From NCBI GenBank assembly GCA_050951365.1, contig JBMNIX010000011.1, forward strand, positions 8,845 to 72,844: DNA of 64,000 nt, given 5' to 3'. The notes under the pieces are model-generated. The model was not told the origin of the DNA, did not search any database, and worked only from the letters and a program-made list of their open reading frames with translations. Numbering within the stretch: position 1 is the first letter of the stretch; the number at the start of each line of letters is the position of its first letter. The stretch is from a bacterium. Its GTDB lineage: Bacteria > Bacillota > DTU030 > DUMP01. Below are positions 6,999 through 27,613 of this stretch, piece by piece. The translations under genes and the position numbers were made by a program.

Positions 6999-7721
6999 AT
7001 GCAAGTCAAGGAGGAACTCTGTGTCGGTTGCGGCCGCTGTGTGCTCTACTGTCCGGTTCAGGCTATCAGTCTCAGCGCAGACAGGAAACTGGCCGTTATT
7101 GACCAGGATGAGTGTGTCGAGTGCGGCGCCTGCCTCAGGAGTCCTGCATGCAAGACTGGTGCCCTTTATCAGCCAGAGCTAACCTGGCCCCGTGCTGTCC
7201 GCAGTCTTTTGAGCGATCCCCTTACTATCGCTCCTGAAAGCGGCATTAGCGGTCGCGGTACGGAAGAAATGAAGACCAACGATGTTACTGCGCGCTTCAA
7301 GCGCGGCTATGCTGGAGTAGCCGTGGAGGTGGGTCGGCCCCTCCTGGGCGCGCGCCTTAGGGATGTAGAAAAAGTGGCACAAGCCATCGCACGTTTTGGT
7401 GTTGAATTTGAAAAGATTAACCCCACCACCAGCCTTATGGCAGATCCCAAGACAGGCAAGTTCAAGGACGATCTCCTAGACGAAAAGGTGCTCTCGGCCA
7501 TTATTGAGTTTGCAGTGCCTATCGAGAAGCTACCTGACGTTCTTTACACTCTGGAACGAGTCTCCCACGAGATAGACACCATCTTTACTGTGGATGTATG
7601 CTCGCGCTGCAATCCAGACGGCTCCATTCCCCATGAGGAACTCCTGGCCCGCGGTAACTGGTGGTATTCCATTAACGTCAAGACCAACGTGGGCTTGGGC
7701 CGACCCCTAGCAGCAGAGTAG
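6999..7721 (+). CDS. 2x[4Fe-4S] ferredoxin domain fused to an uncharacterised ~170-aa domain (module copy 1, subunit A)
   Basis: Cys motifs CVGCGRCVLYCP and CVECGACLRSPAC, followed by a conserved domain (GRGTEEMKTNDVT, FGVEFE, KVLSAIIEF, KTNVGLGRP). A paralog lies at 24717..25427. RBS GGGGAGGACGAGG precedes the ATG. Confidence 0.8.
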   Translation: MQVKEELCVGCGRCVLYCPVQAISLSADRKLAVIDQDECVECGACLRSPACKTGALYQPELTWPRAVRSLLSDPLTIAPESGISGRGTEEMKTNDVTARFKRGYAGVAVEVGRPLLGARLRDVEKVAQAIARFGVEFEKINPTTSLMADPKTGKFKDDLLDEKVLSAIIEFAVPIEKLPDVLYTLERVSHEIDTIFTVDVCSRCNPDGSIPHEELLARGNWWYSINVKTNVGLGRPLAAE

Positions 7722-7754: not shown

Positions 7755-8384
7755 ATGACACATACGCTGCACCGCATCGGCAGCTATAACGACTTGACCG
7801 AGGATTACGTGTTTCTCATGATGCCGTCCAAAGGGATCAACGTAGAAGGATCCGGTGAAAAACTGCGCACCTTTTTGGAAATGGCCTTGAGGCATAATCC
7901 GGTCATTATCGGTGACGCCCGCAAAGGCAACGCCTACCACCAGGGTGGCATTGACAACCTGCTGGCCAATATTGAAGATCAAGCAGTAGTGCAAGCGGTG
8001 TTTGACAATAAGGAAACGGTTGTTACCCTACTTAAAGAACTGAAAGAAGCTGACCTGGGCATGTCAGTGGTGGTTTCTGGCATCGCCACTGAGGTGCACG
8101 AGGCATGTAGGCAGGCGGGATTGGAGCGCCACACCGTAGAACACTCCCTGGGCCGCTGGGGCCGCACCGACAAACTACCGCCGCGGCAAATTCTGGAAAT
8201 AACCAACATGTGTGGACACTCCATGGTCCCGGCCCAACTGGTCTACAACATGCTGGCTGACATAAGAACAGGGCGCAGAACAGCCGAAAATGCGGCAGGA
8301 GAGCTGGCTAAGCCCTGTATGTGCGGTATCTTTAATACAAAACGGGCAGCCCGGCTCTTGGCTGCACTGGCAGAAGCTTTCTAG
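7755..8384 (+). CDS. uncharacterised Cys-containing protein, N-terminus MTHTLHR (module copy 1, subunit B)
   Basis: 209 aa, 33 nt after subunit A, with RBS GAGGAGG. Blocks shared with paralog 25440..26063: MTHTLHR, GSGEKL, HNPV.IGD, VVSG, EIT.MCGH, GRRTAE.A..ELA..C.CGIFN.KRA. I recognise no characterised family. Confidence 0.8.
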   Translation: MTHTLHRIGSYNDLTEDYVFLMMPSKGINVEGSGEKLRTFLEMALRHNPVIIGDARKGNAYHQGGIDNLLANIEDQAVVQAVFDNKETVVTLLKELKEADLGMSVVVSGIATEVHEACRQAGLERHTVEHSLGRWGRTDKLPPRQILEITNMCGHSMVPAQLVYNMLADIRTGRRTAENAAGELAKPCMCGIFNTKRAARLLAALAEAF

Positions 8385-8471
8385 AATAGGAACCTAACCA
8401 GAAAGAAGGTGGGAGTAACTAAGAAATCATTTTGCACCAGAAAAAGAAAGATAGATAGGAGGGGCATTCAC

Positions 8472-9464
8472 ATGCGGAAACGCACACTGGTATTAGTAGC
8501 CAGCCTCCTGGCACTAACACTTCTCGCCGGGTGTTCAGGGGGCCAACAACAGACCTCGCCTGGCGCTAATTATCCGGAAAAACCCATTAACTACGTGATC
8601 CCTTGGAGTCCAGGCGGTGGCAGCGACGTCATGGGGCGCATGGTGGCGGATATCATACAACAGAATAAGTTCCTGCCCCAACCCCTGGTAGTTGTAAACA
8701 AGCCAGGCGGTAGCGGCGCCGTGGGTATGAACGAAGTGGCACAGAAAAAGGGTGATCCCTACACCATTATCGGCGTAGTGTCAGGACAAATCAGTACACC
8801 CATCACCACTGGCGCTGAGGTCAAGGCCTCCACCTTTAAACCCATTGCAGCTTTAGCCCTGGATGAATTCTTTCTCTTGGTAAAACCCGAATCCGAGTTC
8901 CAAACGCTGCAGGACGTCATCGACTATGCCAAGGCCAACCCTGGTAAACTCACCATGGGCGGCACCGGTACCGGCTCTGAAGACCACATGTGCGCCGGCC
9001 TGTTGATGGACGCCGCCGGTATTCAAGTAGAGTATATCCCCTTTGATGGCGGCGGTGAGGTCATGAGCGCCCTCCTAGGCGGGCACGTACAGGTGGCCTG
9101 GGCCAATCCTTCAGAGTGTGCCTCTCAGCTAAAGGGAGGGCTGGTCAGGGTTCTGGGCGTCATGGCACCGGAGCGGACAAAAACCTATCCCGACATCCCA
9201 ACCTTTAAGGAACAGGGTGTAGATGCTGTCTTCCAGCAGATCCGCGCCATCTCTGGTTCGCCTGACATGCCCGACTACGCGGTAGAAGTAATAGGCGAAG
9301 CCCTTAAGAAGGTAAGTGAATCCGAACGCTGGCAGAAAGAATACATTGAGAAGAACGCCCTCACCTCCCGTTACCTTGGCCCGGAGGAGTACGGTCAGGC
9401 TATCGCAGAGGCTGAGAAACAGTACACTGAGATTCTCACTAACCTTGGTTTGGTCAAGAAGTAG
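8472..9464 (+). CDS. tctC: tripartite tricarboxylate transporter (TTT) substrate-binding protein, lipoprotein
   Basis: The signal peptide with lipobox LLAGCSG follows ATG 8472 (RBS GGAGGGG). The motif YPEKPINYVIPWSPGGGSDV is typical of the TctC/Bug family. Confidence 0.8.
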   Translation: MRKRTLVLVASLLALTLLAGCSGGQQQTSPGANYPEKPINYVIPWSPGGGSDVMGRMVADIIQQNKFLPQPLVVVNKPGGSGAVGMNEVAQKKGDPYTIIGVVSGQISTPITTGAEVKASTFKPIAALALDEFFLLVKPESEFQTLQDVIDYAKANPGKLTMGGTGTGSEDHMCAGLLMDAAGIQVEYIPFDGGGEVMSALLGGHVQVAWANPSECASQLKGGLVRVLGVMAPERTKTYPDIPTFKEQGVDAVFQQIRAISGSPDMPDYAVEVIGEALKKVSESERWQKEYIEKNALTSRYLGPEEYGQAIAEAEKQYTEILTNLGLVKK

Positions 9465-9566
9465 GAGCAAGATTAGCCGGTAGAGAGAAAGGAGTGGCTG
9501 CTGGCTTTTGATACACCACCGCCACAGCCCTCCTTTCACACACATCACCAACTGGAGGTTACAGCG

Positions 9567-10004
9567 ATGTCAGGCGACCGTATAGCGGGTTTATTAGGAA
9601 TGATCTGTGGACTATATTGGGGTGTGATGGGCTACAACTACGGCATCTGGGGCCAAACCGGACCAGCCAGCGGCTTCATTCCGGTGATCTTTGGTTCGCT
9701 TACTTTTGTTCTCAGTACTATACTCATCGGGCAAACATTTACGCGGGGCGGAATTAAGCTTAGCATCGGAGAGATACGAACTGTAGTCCTTATCTCTGTT
9801 TTTACGGGTACAGCCATCTTTCTCCTGAATAAACTGGGCACTATGCCTACTCTGGGGCTACTCATTCTTCTCTGGTTGCGCTTCCTCGAGCGTTATCCCT
9901 GGGCCGCAGTCATTAAAATCAGTGTGGGCACCATCGCAGTTGCCTATTTCGTGTTCGTGGTTTGGCTGCAAGTACCATTTCCTACAGGCTGGCTGGGCTT
10001 CTAA
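9567..10004 (+). CDS. tctB: TTT small membrane subunit
   Basis: 145-aa protein with 4 predicted TM segments, lying between the tctC-like and tctA-like genes. Confidence 0.6.
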   Translation: MSGDRIAGLLGMICGLYWGVMGYNYGIWGQTGPASGFIPVIFGSLTFVLSTILIGQTFTRGGIKLSIGEIRTVVLISVFTGTAIFLLNKLGTMPTLGLLILLWLRFLERYPWAAVIKISVGTIAVAYFVFVVWLQVPFPTGWLGF

Positions 10005-10022
10005 GGAAAGGCAGGGTCTAAC

Positions 10023-11546
10023 ATGGATATTCTCTCTAACCTAGTTACAGGTTTTGGCCAAGCACTGCTTCCTGTGAATATCTTCTTCGCCCTGGCAGGA
10101 GGAGTCATGGGGGTCATTGTCGGGGCTTTGCCCGGCCTTGGTTCCATTGCCGGTGTGGCACTCTTGCTCCCGCTCACCTTCAAACTCAATCCTACCTCAG
10201 CCATTATTATGCTGGCAGGCATCTACTATGGCAACATGTTTGGCGGCTCCATCAGTGCCATCCTCATTAATATCCCTGGGGATTCCCCGGCTGTCATGAC
10301 TGCCCTGGATGGTAACCAACTGGCTAAGCAGGGCCGCGCCGGGCAAGCCCTTTTTATGGCCTTTTCCGCCTCTTTCTTCGGTGGCCTCATCGGTATCATT
10401 ATTCTCACTGTTCTCGGTCCATTCTTGGCCTTTGTCGGCCTAAAGTTTGGCCCCCCTGAATTTGCTGCCCTTATCGTCCTGGCTTTAACCAGTATCGGTT
10501 GGCTCCTGGGGGACAACCCTATCAAAGGGGTCTTGGCCGGAGCAGTCGGACTTCTTATTGCCACCATCGGCGTCGATATGATCGAAGGTTTACCCCGCTT
10601 CACCTTTGGGTTAGTAGGCCTCTCATCCGGGGTACCCTTTATTCCCTTTGTCATTGGTCTCTTTGGGCTGGCACAGGTAGTACTCATGTTGGCCCATCCG
10701 GAAGAATTCAGGGCCGACGAAACGCAACCTTCTACCAGACTCTCCCTACGGAGCAGCCTGCCCAGTGTTAAAGATTGGGCCGCCAGTGCCTGGACCATCC
10801 TCAGAAGCGCTGTGTTAGGCTTTTACATCGGTCTACTACCAGGCTCTGGTGCTACCACCGCCGCCTTTTTATCTTATGTGGCCGAAAAGCGCTTAAGCAA
10901 GCACCCGGAACGCCTGGGCCAAGGTGCCATCGAGGGTGTAGCTGCTTCAGAGGCTGCTAATAATGCCGCTAGCATGGGTGCCTTCGCACCGCTCTTGTCT
11001 CTAGGCATTCCTGGTTCTGGGACCACCGCTATCCTTCTCGGTGGCCTCATGATGTGGGGCCTTACCCCTGGCCCGCTGCTCTTTAGAGAAGCGCCGGAGT
11101 TTGTCTGGGGTCTCATCGCCAGTATGTACGTGGGCAATCTCCTCGTGGCCATCACCTGTATTGTAGCTATTCCTGTCTTGGTTTATGTCCTGCGCGTTCC
11201 CCGCGCCGTGATGGCCCCGGTCATTGTTGTAATCTGTATCCTCGGTGCCTACAGTGTGAATAACAGCATCTTTGATCTTTGGGTGATGCTCTTCTCAGGT
11301 GTCCTCGGTTACTTCCTCAACCGGCTAAAATTTCCCATCCCAGCTATGGTGCTGTCCGTTGTCCTCGGGCCACGGCTCATGACTTCTATCCGACAGTCCT
11401 TTATGATGTCCCACGGTGCAGCCAGTATCTTCATCACACGCCCCATTTCCCTCACCCTGCTCCTACTGGCTGTCCTGCTTACCGCTGGCCCCGCTATTGC
11501 TGGCGTAATCAGGAAGCGTCGGGCCGCTTCGGCAACCGCAGAATAG
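10023..11546 (+). CDS. tctA: TTT large permease subunit
   Basis: 507-aa polytopic protein. The motifs GALPGLG, GGSISAILINIPG and LPGSGATTAAFLSY are typical of TctA. Confidence 0.8.
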   Translation: MDILSNLVTGFGQALLPVNIFFALAGGVMGVIVGALPGLGSIAGVALLLPLTFKLNPTSAIIMLAGIYYGNMFGGSISAILINIPGDSPAVMTALDGNQLAKQGRAGQALFMAFSASFFGGLIGIIILTVLGPFLAFVGLKFGPPEFAALIVLALTSIGWLLGDNPIKGVLAGAVGLLIATIGVDMIEGLPRFTFGLVGLSSGVPFIPFVIGLFGLAQVVLMLAHPEEFRADETQPSTRLSLRSSLPSVKDWAASAWTILRSAVLGFYIGLLPGSGATTAAFLSYVAEKRLSKHPERLGQGAIEGVAASEAANNAASMGAFAPLLSLGIPGSGTTAILLGGLMMWGLTPGPLLFREAPEFVWGLIASMYVGNLLVAITCIVAIPVLVYVLRVPRAVMAPVIVVICILGAYSVNNSIFDLWVMLFSGVLGYFLNRLKFPIPAMVLSVVLGPRLMTSIRQSFMMSHGAASIFITRPISLTLLLLAVLLTAGPAIAGVIRKRRAASATAE

Positions 11547-15166: not shown

Positions 15167-15175
15167 TTACGGAAA

Positions 15176-15217
15176 TAAAAAAAGGCGGACCGCCACAAAC
15201 GGTCTCGCCTTTTTTTG
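15176..15217. terminator. bidirectional rho-independent terminator
   Basis: An A-tract, then stem AGGCGGACCG / CGGTCtCGCCT, then a T7 tract. It lies between converging genes 13787..15166 (+) and 15218..15991 (-). Confidence 0.7.
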
Positions 15218-15991
15218 CTAGCCTTTAATAAAATCCTCTATGAACTCAACAATGCGTTCTAGTGCAGTATCGTTTATCTTCTTACCTTTCTCAGGACTGG
15301 CTGCACGGGCATCACCCATAGCCCCGTTGTTGGTAAGGTCTTTCCAGCGGTAAGGGTAACCCACACGGAATTGTCCGTACAGATCTGTATACTTGAAGGG
15401 ATAGGCACCCTCTCCACCCTTACTTAAAGCATCCGGCCGCACCAATTCGGGTGCCAAGAACCAAGCGTCCGAAACCTCCCATTCGCCTGAGTGTTCGATT
15501 CTGCCTGAGGTAACAACCTCCTTGGTCACATCAGCGGTCATTACCTTGTAATTAACATAGGGCACCCTCAAGCCAAACTGGGCTCGGATAGCCTCGACAG
15601 CCACTGCCAAAGTACCCTCGTTACCACCATGGGCGTTGATAATAAGGAAACGCTGGAACCCATGCTGCCGCAAACTGGCCACATAATCAACAATGGTGTC
15701 CACCAAGGTTTGCGGCCTCAAGGTGATAGTGCCGGGGAAATCAAGATGGTGCGGGGAAATCCCCACCGGAATACCCGGTGCAACAAGCACACGGGGATAA
15801 AGGGCGCGAGCTACGCGCAGGGAGAACTTGTAAGCACGCGTAGCATCAGTCGCCAGGCAAAGATGTGGCCCGTGTTGCTCAGTTGATCCCACCGGGATTA
15901 TCACCAGCTGTACCTTGTCTTTGCGCTCCTCGATTTCCATCCAGGTAAGATCGCCAATGGCGACGCGCTTTTCCGTCTCGGCCTCTGGCAT
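15218..15991 (-). CDS. creatininase (creatinine amidohydrolase) family protein
   Basis: VIIPVGSTEQHGPHL and FLIINAHGGN motifs; 257 aa. Confidence 0.8.
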   Translation of the reverse strand: MPEAETEKRVAIGDLTWMEIEERKDKVQLVIIPVGSTEQHGPHLCLATDATRAYKFSLRVARALYPRVLVAPGIPVGISPHHLDFPGTITLRPQTLVDTIVDYVASLRQHGFQRFLIINAHGGNEGTLAVAVEAIRAQFGLRVPYVNYKVMTADVTKEVVTSGRIEHSGEWEVSDAWFLAPELVRPDALSKGGEGAYPFKYTDLYGQFRVGYPYRWKDLTNNGAMGDARAASPEKGKKINDTALERIVEFIEDFIKG

Positions 15992-17779: not shown

Positions 17780-18753
17780 TGGGACACCTCCCCAGGTCCG
17801 GCCTGCAGACAGCAGACCATGTGGTCCTCTCCCAGCTTGATCGGAGCCGGTTTCTTGGCCGCACAAGCAGCCGTGGCCTCAGGGCAACGTGGATGAAAAG
17901 GACAACCGCTGGGTAAGCGCAGCGGGTCTGGCATCATCCCTTCTACCGGCTGCAACCGCTCTACTTTGGATTCAAGGTCGGGCATGGAGCCAAAGAGGCC
18001 GCGGGTATATGGGTGCATTGGTGCACTAAAGACGGCTTGCACCGAACCATGTTCTACAATGCTACCAGCGTACATGACGGCTACCTGATCGCAGATTTCA
18101 GCTACGATTCCCAGGTTATGCGTGATCATTATCAAAGACATTTTGAACTTCTGTTTAAGCTCGTTCATAAGGGCGAGCACCTGGGCCTGAATGGTCACAT
18201 CAAGAGCGGTGGTGGGCTCGTCGGCGATCAAAAGCTCTGGCCTGCAGGCCAAAGCCATGGCAATGCCAACACGCTGTCGCATTCCGCCGCTGAACTGATG
18301 TGGGTACTCACTGGCCCTGTAGGACGGAATACCTACCAGTTCTAGCATCTTGCCTGCCTGTTTAAGCGCTTCTTTATCAGATAGACGCTGGTGCTGCTTG
18401 ATAACTCCAGCGATTTGTTCCCCAATGGTATACACCGGGTTTAGCGACGTCATGGGATTTTGAAAGATCATGGAGATCTTATTACCCCGGATTTTGCGCA
18501 GCTCAACCTCAGGAGCTGTTAACAGCTCCCTATCTTTAAACTTAATACTGCCACTAACGATGCGGCCCACTGGTCTAGGCAGTAACCTCAAAATAGATAG
18601 GGCAGTGGTTGTCTTGCCGGCTCCTGTCTCCCCTACCAGACCCAGGCTCTCTCCTTCTCCAATTTCTAGGTCTAGGTTGTTCACTGCCCGCGCCTTACCA
18701 TCGAAGGTGTGATATTCCACCGACAGATTTTGGATCTTGAGCACACTTTGCAA
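17776..18753 (-). CDS. oligopeptide/dipeptide ABC transporter ATP-binding protein (DppD/OppD-like)
   Basis: Walker [10 protein letters not shown], signature FSGGMRQRV, Walker [13 protein letters not shown]. Confidence 0.85.
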
Positions 18754-18779
18754 CTCATCACCTCCCTGTGCTACGAGAT

Positions 18780-19682
18780 CTACTCCTTAAGCTTTGGATC
18801 CAGAATATCGCGAAGTCCGTCGCCCAGTAGGTTTAATCCCAATGCGAGCACCAGTATTGCCAGCCCAGTGTACGTGGTCAGATGCGGCGCCACCAGGATG
18901 TACTCGCGGCCCTTGGCCAACATAGTCCCCCACTCTGGCGAAGGCGGTTGAGCGCCCAGACCCAGAAAACCCAAGCCAGCTGCGGTGAGAATAGCTGAGC
19001 TAACGTTAAGGGTGCTCCAAACGATCAGAGGTGAGATGATGTTGGGTAAAATGTGCCACGTTATGATCCAAGTATCGTTAGCTCCCATGGCTCTAGCCGC
19101 CTCAATATACTCTTGGTTCTTGATTCCCAAAACCTCACCTCGGGCCAAACGCGCAAAAGCTGGGATAGTAAATACAGCAACAGCTATGACAGCATTCTGC
19201 AGATTGGGTCCCAGGATACTCACGATCACAATAGCCAAGAGAATACTGGGAAAAGCCATCAAAACATCAATGGCACGCATTAGTAAATTATCAAGTGTGC
19301 CGCCGTAGTAGCCTGCTATGATGCCGAGAGGTACACCAATGAGGGCAGCCAGGGCCACAGTTACCAATCCGACCATGAGTGAGATACGCGACCCGTAAAG
19401 AATTCGGCTGAAGATATCGCGCCCCAGCTCATCTGTACCCAGGAGGTGATCCCCACCCGGCTTCGCCAGGATAGCGCTGAAGTCTGGGGTGTAAGGGTCA
19501 TAGGGTGCAAGCCACGGCGTCAAAATCGCCACAATTATGCAGCTCAGCACAATAACGAGCCCGGCCACGGCAACAGGTCGCTTTTTAAAGCGATACCACT
19601 GCCGTGACAGTTCCCGGCGGGTGGCAGGGCTTAACCAAGCACGCCTCGCCGTGGGCTGCTGAGATGTCTGTACTTGAGGCAT
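18780..19682 (-). CDS. ABC peptide transporter permease (DppC/OppC-like)
   Basis: 300-aa permease with the N-terminal OppC-type region and the EAA-loop motif YIEAARAMGA. Confidence 0.8.
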   Translation of the reverse strand: MPQVQTSQQPTARRAWLSPATRRELSRQWYRFKKRPVAVAGLVIVLSCIIVAILTPWLAPYDPYTPDFSAILAKPGGDHLLGTDELGRDIFSRILYGSRISLMVGLVTVALAALIGVPLGIIAGYYGGTLDNLLMRAIDVLMAFPSILLAIVIVSILGPNLQNAVIAVAVFTIPAFARLARGEVLGIKNQEYIEAARAMGANDTWIITWHILPNIISPLIVWSTLNVSSAILTAAGLGFLGLGAQPPSPEWGTMLAKGREYILVAPHLTTYTGLAILVLALGLNLLGDGLRDILDPKLKE

Positions 19683-19703
19683 CAGAGTCTCCCCCTTTAT
19701 CCT

Positions 19704-20624
19704 CTAACTGTAACGAATCCGCGGGTTGACATACGCGTAAAGGAGGTCAACCAGTAGATTGATGATAACAAAGGATGCCGCTACCACTAAGATGGCTGCC
19801 TGCACTGTAGGAAAATCCCGTGCCTTTATGCTTTCCACCGCCAAGCGACCGATGCCCGGTAGAGCAAAAACCGTCTCAGTGATTACGGCACCGCCCAATT
19901 GATGGCCAAACTGGACACCAATAACTGTGATGACAGTGTTCATGGCGTTGCGCAGGGCGTGCTTAAAGATGATAACGCGCTCTGGCAGCCCCTGCGCTCT
20001 GGCCGTCAGAATATAATCCTGCCCCATCACTTCAAGCATACTGGACCGGGTCATACGCGCGATCATGGCCAAGGGCCGCGCAGCCAAGGTTAGTGCTGGC
20101 AAAACAATACCTGTCCAGGATTCAAGGCCCATCAGGGGGAACCACCCTAACCGTACCGAAAAGAAGAGCATCAACATAAGGCCCAGATAAAAGGGCGTGA
20201 TGGAGATACCGATCAAGGCTATCACCATCGTAGCATTGTCGTAAATGGAGTAGCGCCTGGTAGCGGAAATTATGCCGGACGTCAAACCTATAATGGTAGC
20301 AATAACAATCGATATTACGCTCAGTCTTATGGTGTTTAGAAACCGGAAACCAATCTCCGTGGACACTGGCCGCCCGGTACGGATGGACGTCCCAAAATCA
20401 CCTCTAAGGGCTTTACTGGCCCAAGCTATATACTGTTCATGCAGCGGTCTATCAAGTCCAAGGCTACGCCGTACGTTCTCGATATCCTCCGGTTGTGCTC
20501 CTTCGCCGGCAATGACCTCTGCAGGATCACCGGGCATCATATGGATCATGGAAAAGATGAGGATTGATACCACCAGGAGCAGTGGTATCAGCATGAGGAG
20601 ACGGCGGAGGGCATATTTGAGCAT
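19704..20624 (-). CDS. ABC peptide transporter permease (DppB/OppB-like)
   Basis: MLKYALRRLLMLIPLLLVVSILIF... is the canonical DppB/OppB N-terminus; 306 aa. Confidence 0.8.
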   Translation of the reverse strand: MLKYALRRLLMLIPLLLVVSILIFSMIHMMPGDPAEVIAGEGAQPEDIENVRRSLGLDRPLHEQYIAWASKALRGDFGTSIRTGRPVSTEIGFRFLNTIRLSVISIVIATIIGLTSGIISATRRYSIYDNATMVIALIGISITPFYLGLMLMLFFSVRLGWFPLMGLESWTGIVLPALTLAARPLAMIARMTRSSMLEVMGQDYILTARAQGLPERVIIFKHALRNAMNTVITVIGVQFGHQLGGAVITETVFALPGIGRLAVESIKARDFPTVQAAILVVAASFVIINLLVDLLYAYVNPRIRYS

Positions 20625-20720
20625 ACTGTCACCCTCTTTGAGATATTTGAGAAAGGGGCCCCTGGCTGTATTGCAATGCGGCCAGGGGCCATATATACAT
20701 TTTGCAGGAGCTTGATCTAG

Positions 20721-22292
20721 CTACTGCTTCTTGGCATAGCGCAGGTCAACAAACTCGTTGGGCCAGATAAACTCTCCGCTGACGCTCTTATTCTTAGCGA
20801 CAATCTGTTTTTCGTAGTACAGAGAAGCCCACGGCAACTGTTCTTGTATCTTCTCCTGCATCTTCTGCAACACTTCAAGTCGCTTCTCCTGGTCCACTGT
20901 GCGCCGCTGCTCGGCCACCAGCGCATCAATCTCTGGATCGGACATGAAAGAGTAGTTGAGAGAACCACCTGTCACCCAACAAATCTGTGCAGTAAAGTCG
21001 AGATCGCCAGCAGGGGAACCTTTACCCACCATGAAGAGCTGAGTTTCCTCACCCTTCTTAAGCATGTCAGAGTAAATTGACCAGTCTAAAGTCTGCAGAT
21101 CAGCCTTGATACCAACCTGTGCCAGTTGGGCCTGAATAGCCTCTGCCACCTGTTTGTCCATGTTGTATCGGCCAAATGGCGCGTGGAACTTGATCTCAAG
21201 ACCGTTGGGATAACCGGCTTCGGCCAGGAGCTGTTTCGCTTTCTCAGGGTCATAGTCGTAGGTGGGAAGATCCTTGGATGCACCAGGGATGCTGGTCGCC
21301 TCAGGGCCAATTGCTATCTCAGCCGTTCCGAGGAGAATGTTGTCGATAATGGCCTGACGATCAATGGCATGATTCAAGGCCTGCCGCACCCGGACATCGT
21401 CAAAGGGTTTATTCTTGAAGTTCATTCCAAGATAGATGGTACGGAAACCAGGAATAAGGTCAACCTGCAGATTGGGGGCCTTTTCTAATTGCTCAATCTG
21501 GAAGGGCGGCACGTTACTGATAATATCCACCTCGCCCGTCTGCAGGGCCATGACACGAGTGGTGTTTTCCGGGATTACCTTGAAGACGATGGTCTTGGTA
21601 GGCGGCTTTTCGCCCCAGTAGTCCTCGAAACGTTCAAACACCATCTTCTCACCCGGCAGCCAATCCTTTAACACATAGGGGCCAGTACCGGCTGGATGCG
21701 TTGCATAGTCCTTGCCGTACTCGTCAATGGCCTTGGGGCTGAGAATCGCGGCATTGTAAGTGGCCAACTGCGAAAGGAACGGCCCAAAGGGTTCTTCTGT
21801 TGTAAGGGCAATAGTGTAGGGATCCACTATCTCCATATCAGTGATCATTGACAGGATGGAGCGACGCGGTGAACCTAAGTCTGGGTCCAGAATCCGTTCG
21901 AAAGATTTCTTCACTGCCTCGGCATTGAAGTCCGCACCATCATGGAACTTAATGCCTTCTCTGAGCTTGAAGGTCCAGGTTTTTCCATCAGGAGAGGTCT
22001 CCCAGCTCTCGGCTAATCTGCCGACAATGTCCATGTTCTTATCCCAGGTCACCAAGGTCTCATGAACGTGCATGACAGCATTGGCGGTGGGGACGTTATC
22101 CACCATCTGTGGATCCATTGTCCGCGCATCGACACCAACACCGTAAGTCAAGGTATCACTGACTGTGCCTGCTGCAACGCCACCACCTGGCTGATCAGCA
22201 GGAGTTTGCTGCTGGCCACCACCGGAGGAACACCCGGCAAGCAGTAGGATCATAACCATGGCTAAGGCAAACCACTTAGCAGCATGTTTCAT
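20721..22292 (-). CDS. ABC peptide transporter substrate-binding lipoprotein (family 5 SBP)
   Basis: ATG 22292 (RBS GAGGAGGG) gives MKHAAKWFALAMVMILLLAGCSS, which contains a lipobox. The body resembles DppA/OppA family 5 binding proteins. Confidence 0.8.
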   Translation of the reverse strand: MKHAAKWFALAMVMILLLAGCSSGGGQQQTPADQPGGGVAAGTVSDTLTYGVGVDARTMDPQMVDNVPTANAVMHVHETLVTWDKNMDIVGRLAESWETSPDGKTWTFKLREGIKFHDGADFNAEAVKKSFERILDPDLGSPRRSILSMITDMEIVDPYTIALTTEEPFGPFLSQLATYNAAILSPKAIDEYGKDYATHPAGTGPYVLKDWLPGEKMVFERFEDYWGEKPPTKTIVFKVIPENTTRVMALQTGEVDIISNVPPFQIEQLEKAPNLQVDLIPGFRTIYLGMNFKNKPFDDVRVRQALNHAIDRQAIIDNILLGTAEIAIGPEATSIPGASKDLPTYDYDPEKAKQLLAEAGYPNGLEIKFHAPFGRYNMDKQVAEAIQAQLAQVGIKADLQTLDWSIYSDMLKKGEETQLFMVGKGSPAGDLDFTAQICWVTGGSLNYSFMSDPEIDALVAEQRRTVDQEKRLEVLQKMQEKIQEQLPWASLYYEKQIVAKNKSVSGEFIWPNEFVDLRYAKKQ

Positions 22293-22335
22293 TTTGGCTG
22301 TTACCCTCCTCGAAAATGTTACTTGTGTATCGCGG

Positions 22336-23106
22336 TCACTCTTCGGCTCCGGCCGCAATTTCTGCCTGCCGATTCACCTCCTTTCGTTTCGCACCTACTT
22401 TCAAATCGCTCAACTCTTGACTACGTTTCGTATCGAGACGTAGATTTGCAAGGTGGGCCTCTAGTCTCTGCACCGCTAGCTCGGGGTCACGGGCAGCAAT
22501 GGCTTCATATATCTTTTTGTGTTCATGGATGGACTGCTGGCGTTGCTCTTCCGTTCTGGGCACATTACGATAGAGTTCGTTGATGAGCTGGGTTAGGGCC
22601 TCGAAAAGAGGAGTCGCAAAGGTATTATGGGCGCATATCGCCACACCGAGATGAAAGTTTGCCCCAGACTGAACCAATTCTTCTACCGTTCCTGAATGGG
22701 CAACCTTTTCCACCAGCTCGCGCAGCATTTCCAAATCTTTTTCATCCGCACGTAGTGCCGCAAGGCGCACCAAACCACGTTCTATAATCAGCCTCAGCTC
22801 GGTGAGCGCTTCAAGAGGCCTTTCTTCAAAATTGAACAAGAACTCGAGCTGCGCCTTTATGCCACGCTGGAGATCGTTGCAGACAAAACAACCCTTCCCC
22901 TGCACAACCTCAATGATTCCTTTTTCTTCTAAAGCCCGCAGCGCCTCCCGGACAGATGATCGTCCCACACCTAGTTGCTCAGCTAGCTCTTTTTCAGTAG
23001 GAAGTCGACTACCTGGTTCCAAGTTGCCGCCTATTATCAGTTGTTCGATCTCGTTTCTTACCAACTGGGCAAGACCAGTGGGTCGACCAACTGGCTTTAG
23101 GCGCAT
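22336..23106 (-). CDS. GntR-family (FadR-subfamily) transcriptional regulator
   Basis: The winged-HTH LPTEKELAEQLGVGRSSVREALRALEEKGII is followed by an all-helical FCD-like C-domain. It is the first gene of the minus-strand transporter operon and is divergent from 23332..27105. Confidence 0.8.
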   Translation of the reverse strand: MRLKPVGRPTGLAQLVRNEIEQLIIGGNLEPGSRLPTEKELAEQLGVGRSSVREALRALEEKGIIEVVQGKGCFVCNDLQRGIKAQLEFLFNFEERPLEALTELRLIIERGLVRLAALRADEKDLEMLRELVEKVAHSGTVEELVQSGANFHLGVAICAHNTFATPLFEALTQLINELYRNVPRTEEQRQQSIHEHKKIYEAIAARDPELAVQRLEAHLANLRLDTKRSQELSDLKVGAKRKEVNRQAEIAAGAEE

Positions 23107-23120
23107 ACACCAACCCCCCT

Positions 23121-23146
23121 ATCTGAATTCAGATCATCAGATATGC
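23121..23146. promoter_or_regulatory. candidate operator: 14-bp perfect palindrome ATCTGAATTCAGAT plus adjacent TCATCAGATATGC repeat
   Basis: Seen directly at 23121-23134 (palindrome) and 23134-23146. It lies 15 nt upstream of the GntR gene start, and the same 13-mer recurs at 23288-23300. Confidence 0.4.
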
Positions 23147-23287: not shown

Positions 23288-23300
23288 TCATCAGATATGC
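23288..23300. promoter_or_regulatory. second copy of the TCATCAGATATGC motif, upstream of the M20 peptidase operon
   Basis: Exact 13-nt repeat of 23134-23146, about 30 nt upstream of ATG 23332. Confidence 0.4.
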
Positions 23301-23331: not shown

Positions 23332-24699
23332 ATGAGTCTCGCTCACGTTTACAGTTACATTGATAGCCAGCGTGAAGTATTCCTGGAAGATCTTTTCCAA
23401 CTGCTACGGCAAAGGAGTATCAGCACACAGGACGATGGCGTCCAGGAATGTGCTGAGCTTCTTGCGCGCCAGATGCGTGAAGCTGGAATTGAAGCCACTG
23501 TCATGCCGACACCACGCCACCCAATAGTCTACGGCGAGGTTGGCCCCGACGGGGCACCAACCATCCTGATCTACGGCCATTACGACGTGCAGCCGCCTGA
23601 ACCGCTGGAACTCTGGGAGAGTGATCCGTTCAACCCGGTTATCCGCGACGGAAAGATTTTCGCTCGGGGCGCCTCCGACAACAAGGGGCAGCTCTTTGCC
23701 CACGTGAAGGCCGTTCAAGCCTACCTTAAGGTTTTGGGCAAGCTTCCTCTCAAGGTAAAGTTTATCTTTGAGGGTGAGGAAGAGATTTCCAGCCCTAGCT
23801 TGGAACCCTTTGTGGCCAGTCACAAAGACTTGCTCAAGACAGACGTCTGTATCTTTTCCGATAGTCACGTCCAGGAAAATGGTCGTCCTTTAGTGGTGCT
23901 AGGACTTAAAGGTATGCTCTACGTACAGATCACACTTAAAGGTGCCAACCGCGACCTACACTCCATGCGAGCCGCTGCAGTTCCGAGCCCGGTCTGGCGG
24001 CTGATCCATCTCCTATCTACTCTTCGTGGCGAGGACGGCCTTGTACGCATCCCTGGATTCTACGATGATGTTCGCCCCCTCCTGCCTGAGGAAATCGCCG
24101 CCGTTGAGGCCATACCCTGCGATAAGGACGCTCTGTGCGCTGATCTTGGCATCCCAGCTCTGCTGCAAAATCGCAATGGCGACGATTACTACAAGAACAT
24201 GATTTTTGAGCCCACCTGCAATATCGCTGGCCTTAAGGCAGGTTACCAGGGAGTTGGTGCTAAGACTGTGCTCCCCTGCACCGCCACAGCCAAACTGGAC
24301 CTGCGCCTGGTGCCAGACCAGAAACCTGAACGGATACTAGAGTTACTAAAAGACCACCTGGCTAAGAACGGTTACGCCGACGCCGAGATCGAACCACTTG
24401 GCTTCTTGACACCATCACGCACCCCAATCACCCATCCACTTGTGGAGGTAGCACGGGACGCGGTGGCCGACGCCTACGGTGTAGACCCATACATTTATCC
24501 TGGTATCGGCGGTGCTGGCCCGAACTACATCTTTGAGAAACACCTCGGCGTGCCCTGCATAACCATCCCCTTCGCTGCTGCTGACCAGAACAATCACGCC
24601 CCCAACGAAAGTATGATCGTGGACGGCTATTTCAACGGTATTAAGACCGGAGCCTCCCTTATCCACCAGATTGCCGCCTTCTACGCCGCGAAAAAATAA
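23332..24699 (+). CDS. M20-family metallopeptidase (dipeptidase-like)
   Basis: ILIYGHYDVQPPEPLELWESDPF...RGASDNKGQL...FEGEEEISSPSL are M20A dipeptidase motifs; 455 aa. Confidence 0.8.
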   Translation: MSLAHVYSYIDSQREVFLEDLFQLLRQRSISTQDDGVQECAELLARQMREAGIEATVMPTPRHPIVYGEVGPDGAPTILIYGHYDVQPPEPLELWESDPFNPVIRDGKIFARGASDNKGQLFAHVKAVQAYLKVLGKLPLKVKFIFEGEEEISSPSLEPFVASHKDLLKTDVCIFSDSHVQENGRPLVVLGLKGMLYVQITLKGANRDLHSMRAAAVPSPVWRLIHLLSTLRGEDGLVRIPGFYDDVRPLLPEEIAAVEAIPCDKDALCADLGIPALLQNRNGDDYYKNMIFEPTCNIAGLKAGYQGVGAKTVLPCTATAKLDLRLVPDQKPERILELLKDHLAKNGYADAEIEPLGFLTPSRTPITHPLVEVARDAVADAYGVDPYIYPGIGGAGPNYIFEKHLGVPCITIPFAAADQNNHAPNESMIVDGYFNGIKTGASLIHQIAAFYAAKK

Positions 24700-24716: not shown

Positions 24717-25427
24717 ATGTTAGTTGATGAAACAAAATGTGTGGCCTGTGGTAATTGTATTGATTACTGCCCTATGAATGCCATCTCTTTGACCGCAGAG
24801 TGTGCCGCTGTGGATCAAGCAGAGTGCGTGGAATGTGGCGTCTGCCTTCGCTCGGAGTGCTGCCCCACCGGAGCCCTCTACCGTCCAGAGCTTAACTACC
24901 CGCGGGACATCGCCTGCTTCTTCTCGGACCCAGAGGCTACACACCCCTCTACTGATGTGCCTGGACGTGGCACGGAAGAGATGAAAACTAACGAGGTAAC
25001 TGGACGCTTCCCGCCTGGCATGGCCGCGATCGCAATTGAACTGGGGCGACCTGGCATTGGAACGCGCTTCACTGATGTGGAAAAGGTAGCACGCGCCATG
25101 GCTGAGTTCGGCGTGGAGTTCGAGCCACAAAACCCCGTCACCGCTCTCATGATAGACAAGCGAGCAGGTACACTCCCTGATGATCTAAAGCCTGTTAAGG
25201 TTCTCTCGGCCATTGTTGAGTTTGGTGCACCACTGGAAAAGGTGCCAGCCATTCTTCAGCGTCTGAAAGAGGTAGAAGGAGAACTGGAAACCGTTTTTAG
25301 CCTGGATCTGGCTGCCCGTGTTCCGGAGGATGGTTCTCTCCCCTTTGCGGGGCTAGAACTCCCCTACCCGCTTTCCATCAACGGCAAGACCAACGTCGGC
25401 CTGGGTAAACCACGCTTTCGGGAGTAG
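24717..25427 (+). CDS. 2x[4Fe-4S] ferredoxin domain fused to an uncharacterised domain (module copy 2, subunit A)
   Basis: CVACGNCIDYCP and CVECGVCLRSECC, then GRGTEEMKTNEVT, FGVEFE, KVLSAIVEF, KTNVGLGKP. Collinear paralog of 6999..7721. Confidence 0.8.
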   Translation: MLVDETKCVACGNCIDYCPMNAISLTAECAAVDQAECVECGVCLRSECCPTGALYRPELNYPRDIACFFSDPEATHPSTDVPGRGTEEMKTNEVTGRFPPGMAAIAIELGRPGIGTRFTDVEKVARAMAEFGVEFEPQNPVTALMIDKRAGTLPDDLKPVKVLSAIVEFGAPLEKVPAILQRLKEVEGELETVFSLDLAARVPEDGSLPFAGLELPYPLSINGKTNVGLGKPRFRE

Positions 25428-25439
25428 GAGGTTACAGCC

Positions 25440-26063
25440 ATGACACACACACTACACCGTCAAGGGACTGCAGAAAACCTTGCCCATGACTTTTGCGTCC
25501 TGGCCATTTCCGCTCAAGGGATCAACAGCGCCGGTTCAGGCGAAAAGCTGCAGGCAATAAAAGAAATCTTTTTAAAGCACAACCCTGTAAACATCGGTGA
25601 CATTAAGCGCGGCAATATGTACAACCCTAGCACGGAGCACGTAATGGCCGCAACCCAAGACGGTACCGTGGTTCATGCCGTCTACCGTGACCGGGAGACC
25701 TTGATTGCAGTGCTGCGAGACTTAAAAGACGCCGACACCGGCATCTCCATTGTCGTCTCGGGACTTTTCGATCACGTAGGAGAATGTTGCCAGCAGGCGG
25801 GACTAAAACCCCACACCATTGAGTACTCACTAGGGGTTCACGGTGCCGTGGAGCGCCTGCCGGAGCGAAGCATTACTGAAATAACCACCATGTGCGGCCA
25901 CGGGCAGGTCTCCTTTAACCTAGTCCGGCGGATGGTACGAGAAATCGAAGCTGGCCGGAGAACAGCTGAGGACGCCGGAAAAGAACTCGCCCGCCAGTGC
26001 ATCTGCGGTATCTTTAACCCGAAGCGGGCGGAAGAACTACTACTGAAACTAGCTTCAAAGTAA
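25440..26063 (+). CDS. uncharacterised Cys-containing MTHTLHR protein (module copy 2, subunit B)
   Basis: 207 aa, 12 nt after subunit A. Collinear paralog of 7755..8384, with conserved EITTMCGH and CICGIFNPKRA. Confidence 0.8.
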   Translation: MTHTLHRQGTAENLAHDFCVLAISAQGINSAGSGEKLQAIKEIFLKHNPVNIGDIKRGNMYNPSTEHVMAATQDGTVVHAVYRDRETLIAVLRDLKDADTGISIVVSGLFDHVGECCQQAGLKPHTIEYSLGVHGAVERLPERSITEITTMCGHGQVSFNLVRRMVREIEAGRRTAEDAGKELARQCICGIFNPKRAEELLLKLASK

Positions 26064-26118
26064 CCTTTTAGGACAGCCATGATCAAGCGTAGAAACTCGG
26101 TGCAAAGGAGTGAGGCAA

Positions 26119-27105
26119 GTGACTGTGGTAACCAAGGCGGCGGTTCTCAAGGGCCCATATGACATCGAGCTTACCGAGCGGGAACTTGTCTGCGGCGAAA
26201 CCGAGGTCATCGTGAAGAATCACCTAGTTGGCATCTGTGGTTCCGACAAGAACTTTTACCGTGGCCAGTTGCCCCCCAAGACAGCTGAGTTCCGCCAAGA
26301 ACCTGGCTTCCCTTTCCTCCTAGGCCATGAAAGTGGCGGCACCGTGGTAGAGGTGGGTTCTCGTGTCCACGAATACAAGGTTGGCGACAAGGTCATGGCC
26401 TTTGGCTGGAACAACAACCTGGCTGAGTACTTTAAGGCTCCGGTTGAGGAGGTACAACTTGTCCCGGAAGGCCTGGACATGGACCTGGCCAGCCTGGGTG
26501 AACCCATCGGCTGTGCAATGTTTGCAGGCTTAGAAGCAGGAGTAAAGTTGGGTGACACGGTGGCCGTGTTCGGCGCTGGTTTCGCCGGGCAGGTGATCGC
26601 CCAGTGTGCTCGGGCCGCTGGAGCCTATCGCGTAGTGGTTATCGACGTTTGCACTGGCAAGCTTCAGCTGGCCAAGCAATTGGGAGCTCACGTGGCGGTT
26701 AACGCGGCAACTGACGATCCTGTCCAAGTGATAAAGGATCTCACTCACGGACACGGTGCCGACATCGTGGTGGAGGCAGCAGGCACAGAAACAGCCATCA
26801 ACCAGGCCACTCAGGCCCTATGCCACGGCGGAAAGTTTGTTTTCTACAGCTGGGTGACCACCCCAGTACGGCTGGACATTTCACGCTGGCATGACGATGG
26901 CTTTACCTTTGTGAACGCCTGCCTGGTGCACCACAGCCGTGAAGAACGCCAGGTGTGGGCCCCGCGGGCCCTGCGTCCTGTGATCCAAGGGCTGGTTAAG
27001 ATCCATCCTCTCATCACCCACGAGTTCAAGGTGGAAGAGATTAAAGAAGCCTTCGCTTTCGTCGCCCAGGACGAGACGGCGGTGAAGGTAGTCTTAAGAC
27101 CCTAG
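26119..27105 (+). CDS. Zn-dependent medium-chain alcohol/polyol dehydrogenase
   Basis: GICGSD, GHESGGTVVEVG and GAGFAGQV (Rossmann) motifs. GTG 26119 is well spaced from RBS AAAGGAG; GTG 26110 is the alternative start. Confidence 0.8.
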   Translation: MTVVTKAAVLKGPYDIELTERELVCGETEVIVKNHLVGICGSDKNFYRGQLPPKTAEFRQEPGFPFLLGHESGGTVVEVGSRVHEYKVGDKVMAFGWNNNLAEYFKAPVEEVQLVPEGLDMDLASLGEPIGCAMFAGLEAGVKLGDTVAVFGAGFAGQVIAQCARAAGAYRVVVIDVCTGKLQLAKQLGAHVAVNAATDDPVQVIKDLTHGHGADIVVEAAGTETAINQATQALCHGGKFVFYSWVTTPVRLDISRWHDDGFTFVNACLVHHSREERQVWAPRALRPVIQGLVKIHPLITHEFKVEEIKEAFAFVAQDETAVKVVLRP

Positions 27106-27106: not shown

Positions 27107-27166
27107 TAAAAAAAGAGGATCCCGGCTACGTTGTGCTGCAAGGCACTCGCAGTCGGGATTTTTTTA
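27107..27166. terminator. bidirectional terminator between the ADH gene and the C_GCAxxG gene
   Basis: An A7 tract, then an imperfect hairpin ATCCCGGCT...AGTCGGGAT, then a T7 tract. Confidence 0.55.
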
Positions 27167-27613
27167 CGCCAGCAGCTTGGTTACTAGCACCGCCGCCGTC
27201 TCAACAAAACGCTGACACTTGATCCGGCGCTCGGGGTCGTCCTTGAATCTCTTCTCGCCCTCCGGGCTGCGCAGGTCATAGCCGGTAAGTTCCCGGCAGA
27301 GAAGTTTCCCGTGCTCCCCTTGAAAGCCAGCAATGAATTCCCTCATCTTGCTGCGTACACGGTCGTAGGCTTCCTTGTCCCCGGCCTGTTCACGTCCACC
27401 CCACAAGCCTACCAAGAGTGCAGCTCCGCTGATAACACCGCAGACCTCGCCTTGGCCGCCCACCCCACCGCCAAAAGATGTGGCCAGGGCTGAAGGTAGG
27501 TCTAACCCCATTTGCAGTGCCTCCCGGGCACCTAAGAAAACTGCTTCAGCTCAACTGTATCCGGCTATGAAATAGTCAGCTGCCACCTCTCTGGCCTGTT
27601 GACTTGGCTCCAT
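27164..27613 (-). CDS. C_GCAxxG_C_C-family putative redox protein with in-frame TGA (codon 21) at the first conserved Cys position: candidate selenoprotein
   Basis: ATG 27613 (RBS GAGGAGG) gives MEPSQQAREVAADYFIAGYS-TGA-AEAVFLGAREALQMGLDLP..., in frame with ORF 27164..27511. That ORF carries GEVCGVISGA, LLCRELTG and IKCQRF. The family consensus here is GYNCAQAV. Confidence 0.6.
27516..27532 (-). other. candidate bacterial SECIS hairpin
   Basis: On the mRNA strand, GGUGCC-CGGGA-GGCACU forms 6 bp with a G-containing loop. It starts 18 nt after UGA (27553..27551). Confidence 0.4.

Follow-up and report, generated by a model that had tools for sequence, protein, structure and literature searches.

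A widespread ferredoxin-linked gene pair, present as two divergent copies in a Bacillota contig, may encode a reusable ferredoxin-coupled metalloenzyme

Two copies of a gene pair in one window

The stretch of DNA analysed here (the window) comprises 64,000 nucleotides of contig JBMNIX010000011.1 from a bacterium of the DTU030 lineage of Bacillota, and it contains two copies of a gene pair that we refer to as A-B. Gene A encodes a protein with an N-terminal ferredoxin domain, and gene B encodes a partner protein that starts with MTHTLHR. Copy 2 (A2 and B2) is the main subject of this study, and copy 1 (A1 and B1) is its only further relative in the window, as judged by a six-frame motif scan and by hidden Markov models (HMMs) of the two families, which gave scores of 385.7 bits for A2, 362.0 for A1, 346.9 for B2 and 310.9 for B1. 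The coordinates of the open reading frames (ORFs) confirm what a first-pass annotation of the sequence had described, namely, that A precedes B in both copies and that A2 and B2 are separated by a gap of exactly 12 nt, GAGGTTACAGCC. A Shine-Dalgarno sequence, AGGAGG, overlaps the stop codon of A2, and the gap between A1 and B1 is 33 nt. The M20 peptidase upstream of copy 2, the zinc-dependent alcohol dehydrogenase (Zn-ADH) downstream of it, and the divergent GntR regulator were likewise borne out by Pfam and NCBIfam matches (Table 1). The partner genes indeed differ between the copies, with M20 and Zn-ADH at copy 2 and a tripartite tricarboxylate-type transporter (TTT) and a gene of the fumarylacetoacetate hydrolase (FAH) family at copy 1.

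Table 1. Positions in the window of the two A-B pairs, of features within copy 2 and of the surrounding genes and candidate operator boxes
Feature	Position	Strand	Length	Remarks
A2	24717..25427	+	236 aa	ORF; Fer4 dicluster plus 180-aa C-domain
A2 ferredoxin domain, clostridial-type 2x[4Fe-4S]	24717-24884	+	aa 1-56	Pfam Fer4
A2 C-domain, undescribed	24885-25424	+	180 aa	Without library match
B2	25440..26063	+	207 aa	ORF; starts MTHTLHR
MTHTLHR of B2	25440-25460	+		Invariant N-terminus
MCGHG of B2	25890-25904	+		Conserved motif
CxCG of B2	25998-26009	+		Conserved motif
A1	6999..7721	+	240 aa	A2 paralog, 54% identity
B1	7755..8384	+	209 aa	B2 paralog, 50% identity
M20-family metallopeptidase, dipeptidase-like	23332..24699	+		Pfam Peptidase_M20, M20_dimer; 17 nt upstream of A2
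Medium-chain Zn-ADH, threonine/sorbitol dehydrogenase-like	26110..27105	+		ADH_N, ADH_zinc_N; 46 nt downstream of B2
GntR/FCD regulator	22336..23106	-		Pfam GntR 82.9 bits, FCD 84.7 bits; divergent from M20
Opp/Dpp-type peptide ABC operon	16832-22358	-		SBP_bac_5, two permeases, two ATPases
Candidate operator box 1	23134..23146	.		TCATCAGATATGC; 28 nt upstream of GntR start
Candidate operator box 2	23288..23300	.		TCATCAGATATGC; 32 nt upstream of M20 start
TctC-TctB-TctA TTT	8409..11546	+		Pfam TctC, TctA; directly downstream of copy 1
FAH-family gene	11568-12446			Pfam FAA_hydrolase; after TctCBA

The two copies are paralogous over their full length. In BLASTP alignments, A2 and A1 are identical at 127 of 236 positions (54%, E 4e-90) and B2 and B1 at 98 of 196 (50%, E 1e-71), in line with the earlier estimate by eye that about half of the positions are conserved in long collinear blocks. 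The similarity extends beyond the ferredoxin motifs, with the C-domains of A2 and A1 sharing 52% of their residues (93/180) compared to 62% in the ferredoxin domain, and B carries no ferredoxin motif at all. The notion that the likeness of the two loci is trivial and reflects generic ferredoxin motifs and chance has the shared CxxCxxCxxxCP motifs in its favour and nothing else, and it was rejected as having practically no chance of being correct in view of the full-length collinear alignments, the identity outside the ferredoxin domain, and family HMM scores of 311 to 386 bits for both copies.

There is no DNA-level repeat between copy 1 and copy 2 by nucleotide identity (55 to 56%) or by shared-word comparison, in which the longest exact word common to both is 14 nt, and the absence of a recent repeat had been stated correctly. 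Third codon positions are 32 to 36% identical, which is near random. The nonsynonymous divergence (dN) is 0.45 to 0.47 for the A and B pairs, and because the synonymous divergence (dS) is saturated (3.3 for A and not computable for B), dN/dS can be given only as at most ~0.13. Both pairs are held under purifying selection. When homologs are ranked by identity, the in-genome partner copy takes the 9th to 44th place of 84, and since proteins from other phyla are closer than the in-genome partner, the copies represent two ancient subfamilies and not a lineage-specific duplication. The two window copies may go back either to an in-genome duplication or to independent acquisition. The previous interpretation of an old duplication under selection therefore holds with respect to the age, the full-length similarity and the dN/dS bound, but each copy has relatives that are closer to it than the other copy. 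Taken by itself, copy 2 is an ordinary paralog. The data do not bear out the description of the region as an island: between 4 and 58 kb the GC content is uniform, and the surroundings of copy 2 show synteny with the chromosome of Gelria sp. Kuro-4.

The A and B proteins and their pairing

Residues 1 to 56 of A constitute by themselves a 2x[4Fe-4S] ferredoxin by both Pfam (PF00037/PF12838) and fold. Two CxxCxxCxxxC(P) motifs supply the eight Cys ligands (C8, C11, C14, C18, C37, C40, C43, and C49), which are invariant in 40 homologs, and A2 matches PF00037 Fer4 with 40.7 bits (cutoff, 21.1). In the AlphaFold model of A2 (predicted local distance difference test [pLDDT], 89.8), Foldseek aligned this domain with 9g03_E at a target TM-score (TMt) of 0.90 and a root mean square deviation (rmsd) of 1.2 Å. 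Residues 57 to 236 of A2 gave no Pfam or NCBIfam match, and the model of the C-domain gave only weak ACT-like matches in the PDB. PDB sequence searches with A, as a single sequence and as a profile, and PADLOC and PHROGs scans of A2 returned matches to ferredoxin domains only. The C-domain contains blocks that do not vary between phyla (GRGTEEMKTN, ELGRPG, NPVT, SAIVEF, and NGKTNVGLG), and A2 and A1 both carry all of the C-domain motifs of the family. Used alone as a query, the C-domain found 3862 proteins, nearly all of ~240 aa with an N-terminal Fer4 domain, and by this search the architecture of A is fixed. Of the A homologs, which number in the thousands, essentially none lacks the complete eight-Cys, two-cluster domain.

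B2 has no Pfam, NCBIfam, PADLOC or PHROG match, and scanning 37 B homologs singly at E ≤ 5 gave no family match for B; a few B members show weak winged-helix Pfam matches (E 0.02 to 0.16). No PDB sequence was matched with either a single B sequence or a profile. The AlphaFold model of B2, which is a confident one (pLDDT, 91.8; predicted TM-score [pTM], 0.89), has an N-domain of alpha/beta type followed by a helical Cys/His domain, and no Foldseek match of this model to the PDB was significant, the best having an E value of 0.03 with query TM-scores (TMq) of ≤0.33. As far as these sequence and model searches reach, only the first 56 residues of A fall in a known family, and B and the C-domain of A are undescribed.

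Conservation within B was counted in 133 divergent full-length representatives of clusters at 50% identity. C152, G153 and H154 are present in 133 of 133, C187 and C189 in 131 of 131, R7 in 128 of 128, N193 in 130 of 131, H6 in 122 of 128, H125 in 123 of 133 and C117 in 78 of 133; B2 itself carries C152-G-H154 and C187-I-C189. Of 150 representatives, 118 begin at residue 1 with the motif x[TS]Hxx[HY]R, or 121 when three mis-called short leaders are counted, and a MTNTLHR variant takes its place in a further ~15, with His3 replaced by Asn in 11 of 127. Because this motif starts at residue 1 and B is always N-terminal in fusions (see below), we regard B as defined by a free invariant N-terminus together with a Cys3-His set. 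Cys152, His154, Cys187 and Cys189 are candidate residues of a metal or active site. N-terminal motifs such as XXH (ATCUN) and the MHE of HypA bind Ni or Cu, and B2 starts with M-T-H, which puts a His at position 3 (position 2 if the Met is removed) and makes this N-terminus a candidate metal-binding motif. No selenocysteine was found in B, and short B matches represent frameshifts or fragments and not UGA at Cys positions.

A2 residues 135 to 195 and B2 residues 44 to 107 (positions ~25119-25301 and ~25569-25760) are possible distant paralogs, with the motif NPV[NT]..GD.KtG...vL..LKe...VvS common to the aligned A C-domain and B N-domain. The hhalign comparison was not significant, with E 0.055 for the full profiles and a local E of 1.3e-3 at 18% probability, and the likeness is a hint that the two proteins might form a pseudo-symmetric heterodimer.

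The A-B module is widespread, spanning more than 10 phyla of Bacteria and Archaea. A scan of one genome per GTDB species (~186,000 representatives) found B encoded in at least 578 species genomes, with carriers in Bacillota, Dehalococcoidia, Anaerolineae, Desulfobacterota, Syntrophia, Acidobacteriota, Nitrospirota, Gemmatimonadota, Spirochaetota, Synergistota, gut Sutterellaceae and Bathyarchaeia, and an exhaustive search with the B profile gave 910 clusters at 50% identity. Pairing was evaluated in 80 fetched genome loci together with three loci from close relatives and the window. A lies directly upstream of B on the same strand for 85 of 96 B genes, and the commonest junction is a 4-nt stop/start overlap (25 of the 85 pairs), with nearly all remaining junctions being 0 to 20 nt. 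Distances between A proteins track those between their B partners (r = 0.85), and by this measure the two proteins co-evolve. In about half of the loci, A-B is a self-contained bicistron. Three fusion proteins were found among 150 B representatives, all with B at the N-terminus, and the only predicted types were B-A (P0388) and B fused to a CooF-like polyferredoxin (P0254). Taken together, the conserved pairing, the co-evolution and the fusions suggest a stoichiometric A-B complex in which B would communicate with iron-sulfur (Fe-S) carriers. In six loci (L015, L017, L039, L044, L050, and L084), two or three diverged A-B pairs stand in tandem within a single operon; the arrangement in L084 (7032-11142) is M20-A-B-A'-B', where A'-B' is only ~50 to 55% identical to either window copy.

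Genomic neighbourhoods of A-B

At copy 2, the M20 assignment rests on scores of 105.6 bits for Peptidase_M20, 47.5 for M20_dimer and 410.7 for NCBIfam PRK06446 (cutoff, 369). The Zn-ADH falls below every specific NCBIfam cutoff, the best match being L-threonine 3-dehydrogenase (155 against 458 bits), and its translation may in fact begin at a GTG a few codons into the ORF. The intergenic gaps are 17, 12 and 46 nt with no convincing internal terminator, and M20-A2-B2-ADH is a putative single operon. The Opp operon, whose distal ATPase gene (16832-17866) matches Pfam ABC_tran and oligo_HPY, is divergent from M20-A2-B2, and the GntR gene is co-directional with Opp. In the 225-bp spacer between GntR and M20, the 13-nt box TCATCAGATATGC occurs twice in direct orientation, each time ~30 nt from one of the divergent start codons, and these are the only two matches within the 64 kb. 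The core TCATCAGAT is invariant in the corresponding spacers of Gelria sp. Kuro-4 and L084, for which the overall spacer identity is only 67%. The spacer contains no inverted repeat, and the boxes are candidate GntR operators.

The divergent arrangement of Opp and GntR on one strand and M20-A-B on the other is shared by the window, Gelria sp. Kuro-4 (L082) and L084, with the M20-A-B order kept in Gelria (81% amino acid identity) and in L084. The copy-2 clade, at 73 to 80% identity, consists of Gelria sp. Kuro-4, two Bacillota metagenome-assembled genomes (MAGs) from digesters and sediments, and a Logan contig, and an Opp-type operon and M20 accompany A-B in all of its members; in L085, M20 is found at the end of the divergent Opp operon. 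The Opp genes are 73 to 84% identical at the amino acid level and in the same order in L084, as are four of the five in Gelria, where the position of the distal ATPase falls beyond the end of the L082 stretch. The protein identity between the window and Gelria is 73 to 84% over Opp, M20, A and B and 81 to 93% in the downstream genes for a small acid-soluble spore protein and an aminotransferase. Neither the Zn-ADH gene nor the gene for a C_GCAxxG_C_C protein, which in the window is convergent to Zn-ADH (27164-27511, minus strand), is present at the Gelria locus. Since it is absent in Gelria, we place Zn-ADH outside the conserved copy-2 unit. Zn-ADH orthologs with 64 to 67% identity nevertheless adjoin A-B in Nitrospirota, Desulfosporosinus and other Bacillota. 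C_GCAxxG_C_C is a redox-type, Cys-rich family with selenoprotein members. In a 74%-identical relative of copy 2 (L001, 3675-6829), M20 and a 594-aa protein precede A-B; by eye, and in its N-terminal sequence only, this protein resembles gamma-glutamyltranspeptidase (GGT), which hints that gamma-glutamyl or glutathione-like peptides might be substrates there.

For the 80 loci, 984 neighbour genes were clustered and the cluster representatives annotated. A tungsten-type aldehyde:ferredoxin oxidoreductase (AOR) is found in 18 of the 80, often with MoaD-like genes and a polyferredoxin of its own, TctCBA transporters follow A-B in ~13, and TRAP transporters occur in ~12. LarA-type racemases are present in 9 of the 80 in the company of LutAB, GlcDEF, a Gcl-like thiamine pyrophosphate (TPP) enzyme, a Hyi-like isomerase, a tartronate-semialdehyde-reductase-like enzyme, glycerate kinase and PPDK, and another recurrent set combines a TPP enzyme with two family-III CoA transferases. 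Zn-ADH is found in 8 of the 80, and Ldh_2 and D-2-hydroxyacid dehydrogenases recur beside A-B, as do C-N hydrolases (M20, M29, M42, GGT, amidohydrolases, and FdrA/AllG). Regulators beside A-B (GntR, sigma-54, and two-component) are all separate genes. In four loci from several phyla (L002, L022, L070, and L075), the whole operon consists of a transporter and A-B, sometimes with a regulator. A C2/glyoxylate hypothesis was considered and set aside, being only partly backed and leaving the peptide-linked copy-2 clade without explanation; the Gcl-like TPP enzyme, at 750 bits, falls short of its cutoff of 791, and the matches to LarA, tartronate-semialdehyde-reductase-like and Frc-like proteins likewise all come in just under theirs.

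A cluster of a cooF-like gene, a 'mini-CooS' and a flavin adenine dinucleotide (FAD) oxidoreductase is found in 11 of the 80 loci (L010, L011, L014, L016, L024, L029, L032, L059, L060, L074, and L080; around position 8000 of each locus), which span Peptococcaceae, Nitrospirota, Acidobacteriota and Syntrophobacterales. Mini-CooS is a protein of 456 to 514 aa that resembles carbon monoxide dehydrogenase (CODH)/prismane proteins, the FAD partner is a pyridine-nucleotide oxidoreductase, and a Zn-ADH that is 64 to 67% identical to that of the window is often found within these clusters too. Mini-CooS has been described before (PMC3328121).

In a neighbour-joining tree, the genomic contexts follow the B subclades, examples being a mini-CooS clade that crosses phyla, a clade with TPP enzymes and CoA transferases, a Dehalococcoidia clade with the order AOR-A-B-LarA, and the TTT and TRAP clades. 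Across the 80 genomes, the subfamilies go with distinct neighbourhoods, in keeping with A-B being a reusable module. This supports the modular half of the earlier proposal of a modular redox device plugged into two related catabolic routes, and the redox half is inferred from the ferredoxin domain and the Fe-S fusions.

Copy 1 groups with the TTT-linked sequences, and its nearest B, 62% identical, is from a Clostridia MAG with TctC. The other side of copy 1 carries genes for a ThiF-MobB fusion (5348-6790, minus strand, divergent from A1), an OPT transporter, an S58 peptidase, a MoaD-like protein and an AOR. The AOR gene (377-2278, plus strand) has an in-frame TAG at 719-721 (...DSAGAGT*APIFKRTGYD...) at a site that is usually aromatic in AORs, and a change from TGG to TAG requires one base; a pseudogene, an assembly error or recoding could each account for it. 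It is followed by an 80-aa MoaD/ThiS-like ORF ending in GG (2333-2575, plus strand), and the pairing of AOR and MoaD beside A-B is also seen in Bathyarchaeia, Thermovirgaceae and Syntrophaceae loci. The Fis-type helix-turn-helix tail of a sigma-54-type activator is found at the left edge of the window (127-303, plus strand), and positions 1 to 4000 have a GC content of 63 to 66% compared to ~51 to 57% over most of the remainder. Between the copies, an asparaginase, an amidohydrolase-superfamily enzyme and a creatininase-family amidohydrolase are encoded (12589-15991), which together with the S58, M20 and Opp genes makes this region dense in C-N bond hydrolases. The sole Rfam matches in the window at gathering thresholds were three tRNA genes (45461-45533, 60592-60664, and 62828-62898, all on the minus strand), and no Rfam riboswitch or leader was found near either copy.

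Possible function and relation to known systems

We propose, at a probability of roughly 45%, that A-B is a heteromeric ferredoxin-coupled metalloenzyme that is reused as a module and that, in the case of copy 2, is part of a GntR-controlled operon. In such an enzyme, A and B would be made together through translational coupling and form a complex, and the two [4Fe-4S] clusters of A would relay electrons between a low-potential pool (ferredoxin or partner Fe-S proteins) and B. A metal or cluster site in B would be built from Cys152, His154, Cys187 and Cys189, and the substrate site might be lined by the free N-terminus (His3, His6, and Arg7), His125, Asn193, and polar loops of the A C-domain. 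The complex would oxidize or reduce a small carboxylate, aldehyde or amino-acid-derived compound in a ferredoxin-linked reaction, with different subfamilies of the module placed in different uptake and catabolic operons. Copy 1 would then be coupled to the TTT carboxylate importer, and since the copy-2 operon adjoins a peptide ABC importer, the substrate of copy 2 is probably released from an imported peptide-like compound.

A redox role is suggested by the N-domain of A being a bona fide ferredoxin and by B being fused or adjacent to Fe-S carriers. Catalysis is favoured over an accessory role because of the transporter-only operons, the dense polar conservation, and the independent recruitment into catabolic contexts, and a small carboxylate or amino-acid-derived substrate is favoured because the chemistry of the neighbours recurs: 2-hydroxy/2-oxo acid dehydrogenases, racemases, TPP enzymes, aldehyde oxidoreductases or reductases, and hydrolases that free amino or oxo acids by cleaving C-N bonds. 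A more specific version, in which A-B is an unrecognised class of ferredoxin-dependent metalloenzyme with B as the catalytic subunit, having a fold absent from the PDB, a site of N-terminal His/Arg residues and a Cys3-His-ligated cluster, and carrying out a redox step on small 2-oxo/2-hydroxy acids, aldehydes or amino-acid derivatives that anaerobic Bacteria and Archaea would have in common, is one that we put forward only tentatively.

Several observations speak against the proposed enzyme. The neighbourhoods are varied to the point (peptides, carboxylates, CODH-like proteins, and tungsten enzymes) that one substrate class is hard to define, and this variety fits a general accessory or electron-transfer role. 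Each fusion is a lone predicted sequence that may stem from a tandem array or an error in gene calling, and the Cys3-His residues may hold a structural zinc in place of a redox centre. Sigma-70 promoter and terminator scans around copy 2 gave results at or below shuffle expectation. Every database name given to members of the families is 'hypothetical protein' or '4Fe-4S binding protein', and literature searches on the A-B family, including MTHTLHR, AOR/LarA in Dehalococcoidia and the Syntrophus AOR, found no paper.

These observations have to be weighed together with what other explanations would predict. If A were a specialised ferredoxin and B a docking or tuning partner with no chemistry of its own, A-B would link AOR, mini-CooS/CooF, LutAB and GlcDEF to the cellular redox pool. 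The complete clostridial ferredoxin in A, the high frequency of Fe-S or ferredoxin-dependent neighbours such as AOR and the cooF-mini-CooS-FAD oxidoreductase cluster, the B-CooF fusion and the highly varied neighbourhoods would all fit such an adaptor. It is harder to reconcile with the many loci that have no other redox enzyme and just a transporter and A-B, with the copy-2 clade, which offers only a peptidase and an NAD-type ADH, and with the AOR loci of Bathyarchaeia and Thermovirgaceae that already encode their own polyferredoxin beside A-B, and the dense invariant polar residues in the A C-domain and B look more like an active site than a docking surface. We consider an adaptor rather unlikely. 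B could instead bind Ni or another metal and, with electrons supplied by A, act as a maturation factor or metallochaperone for LarA (Ni-pincer), mini-CooS (Ni-Fe-S), AOR (tungsten) or M20 metallopeptidases. The M-T-H-x-x-H-R N-terminus fixed at residue 1 would suit this role, LarA, mini-CooS or AOR is present in ~30 of the 80 loci, and molybdopterin or tungstopterin genes are found nearby, such as ThiF-MobB by A1 and MoaA, MoaC and MoeA in L085. Against this stand the substitution of His3 by Asn noted above, the lack of a nearby Ni or W enzyme in most loci, the transporter-only operons, and the presence of several tandem copies per locus (L015 and L039), which would be unusual for a chaperone; the known maturases LarBCE and CooC/T/J are unrelated to A or B, and we find this role quite improbable.

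It is also improbable that A-B is a non-redox enzyme (hydrolase, lyase, or isomerase) or an ACT-like ligand or redox sensor in which the Cys/His site holds structural zinc. The ACT/ferredoxin-like beta-alpha-beta-beta-alpha-beta folds of the A C-domain and the B N-domain, with weak Foldseek matches to aspartokinase regulatory domains and PII, would be in keeping with this, as would the weak winged-helix matches of a few B members and the wealth of C-N hydrolases among the neighbours. However, the invariant eight-Cys ferredoxin domain in essentially all A homologs argues for electron transfer, no DNA-binding family was significant, and the regulators at these loci are genes of their own.

Few gene pairs that are this widespread are still without a family description. 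The operons that hold A-B serve uptake and catabolism in anaerobes that are the driving force of digesters, sediments and syntrophic food webs, and knowledge of the reaction would close a gap in the metabolic reconstruction of these organisms and could reveal a new metallocofactor environment. The value of copy 2 is that it reveals the modular re-use of the pair and points to a cultured carrier; since Gelria sp. Kuro-4, for which a complete genome is available, carries the M20-A-B operon (with A-B at 339448-340841 of AP024619.1), the question of what A-B does is directly testable.

Among the known systems, the clostridial 2x[4Fe-4S] ferredoxins (1fdn of C. acidurici and 9g03_E of C. autoethanogenum) are the closest to A, of which residues 1 to 56 have both Cys motifs and align with these structures at TMt 0.84 to 0.90 and an rmsd of 1.2 to 1.5 Å. 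Unlike a free clostridial ferredoxin, A has an invariant 180-aa domain and is paired with B. Automatic labels for A go further than this relationship allows. The match to the 2-oxoacid:ferredoxin oxidoreductase delta subunit (TIGR02179) reaches 26.2 bits against a cutoff of 60.05 and covers the ferredoxin domain only. The JGI label 'dihydropyrimidine dehydrogenase PreA subunit' was rejected, as there is no match to a dihydroorotate dehydrogenase-like flavin mononucleotide TIM barrel and A2 has just 236 aa, and DUF362 (PF04015), a label in UniRef and NCBI, gave no match at E ≤ 0.01 for A2 or A1. Both labels are automatic transfers that share with A only the 4Fe-4S dicluster domain. 6-Hydroxynicotinate reductase (EC 1.3.7.1) of Eubacterium barkeri is a possible lead. 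It is a ferredoxin-dependent reductase, and the enzymes next to it in its pathway (an enamidase of the amidohydrolase type, a member of the 3-hydroxyisobutyrate dehydrogenase family and a lyase of the ICL/PEP-mutase family) are similar to those encoded beside A-B at some loci; no relation is claimed.

Sites made of three Cys and one His are known from the CDGSH [2Fe-2S] cluster of mitoNEET, the His-ligated [4Fe-4S] cluster of 4-hydroxybutyryl-CoA dehydratase, and Cys3His zinc sites, and B likewise has three Cys and one His (CGH ... CxC). A CDGSH/mitoNEET or Rieske assignment was rejected, as the order of the B motif is CGH...CxC with a different spacing and there is no Pfam or PDB match. The general plan of A-B resembles that of PorD/KorD, CooF, AorA and RnfB, in which a small Fe-S subunit connects a catalytic partner with the ferredoxin pool. 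The NCBIfam matches to these families are weak, well short of all of their cutoffs, and restricted to the ferredoxin domain of A. In contrast to those systems, B is unrelated to known catalytic subunits and A-B also occurs without those enzymes, and there is a substantial chance that the pair represents a new enzyme class.

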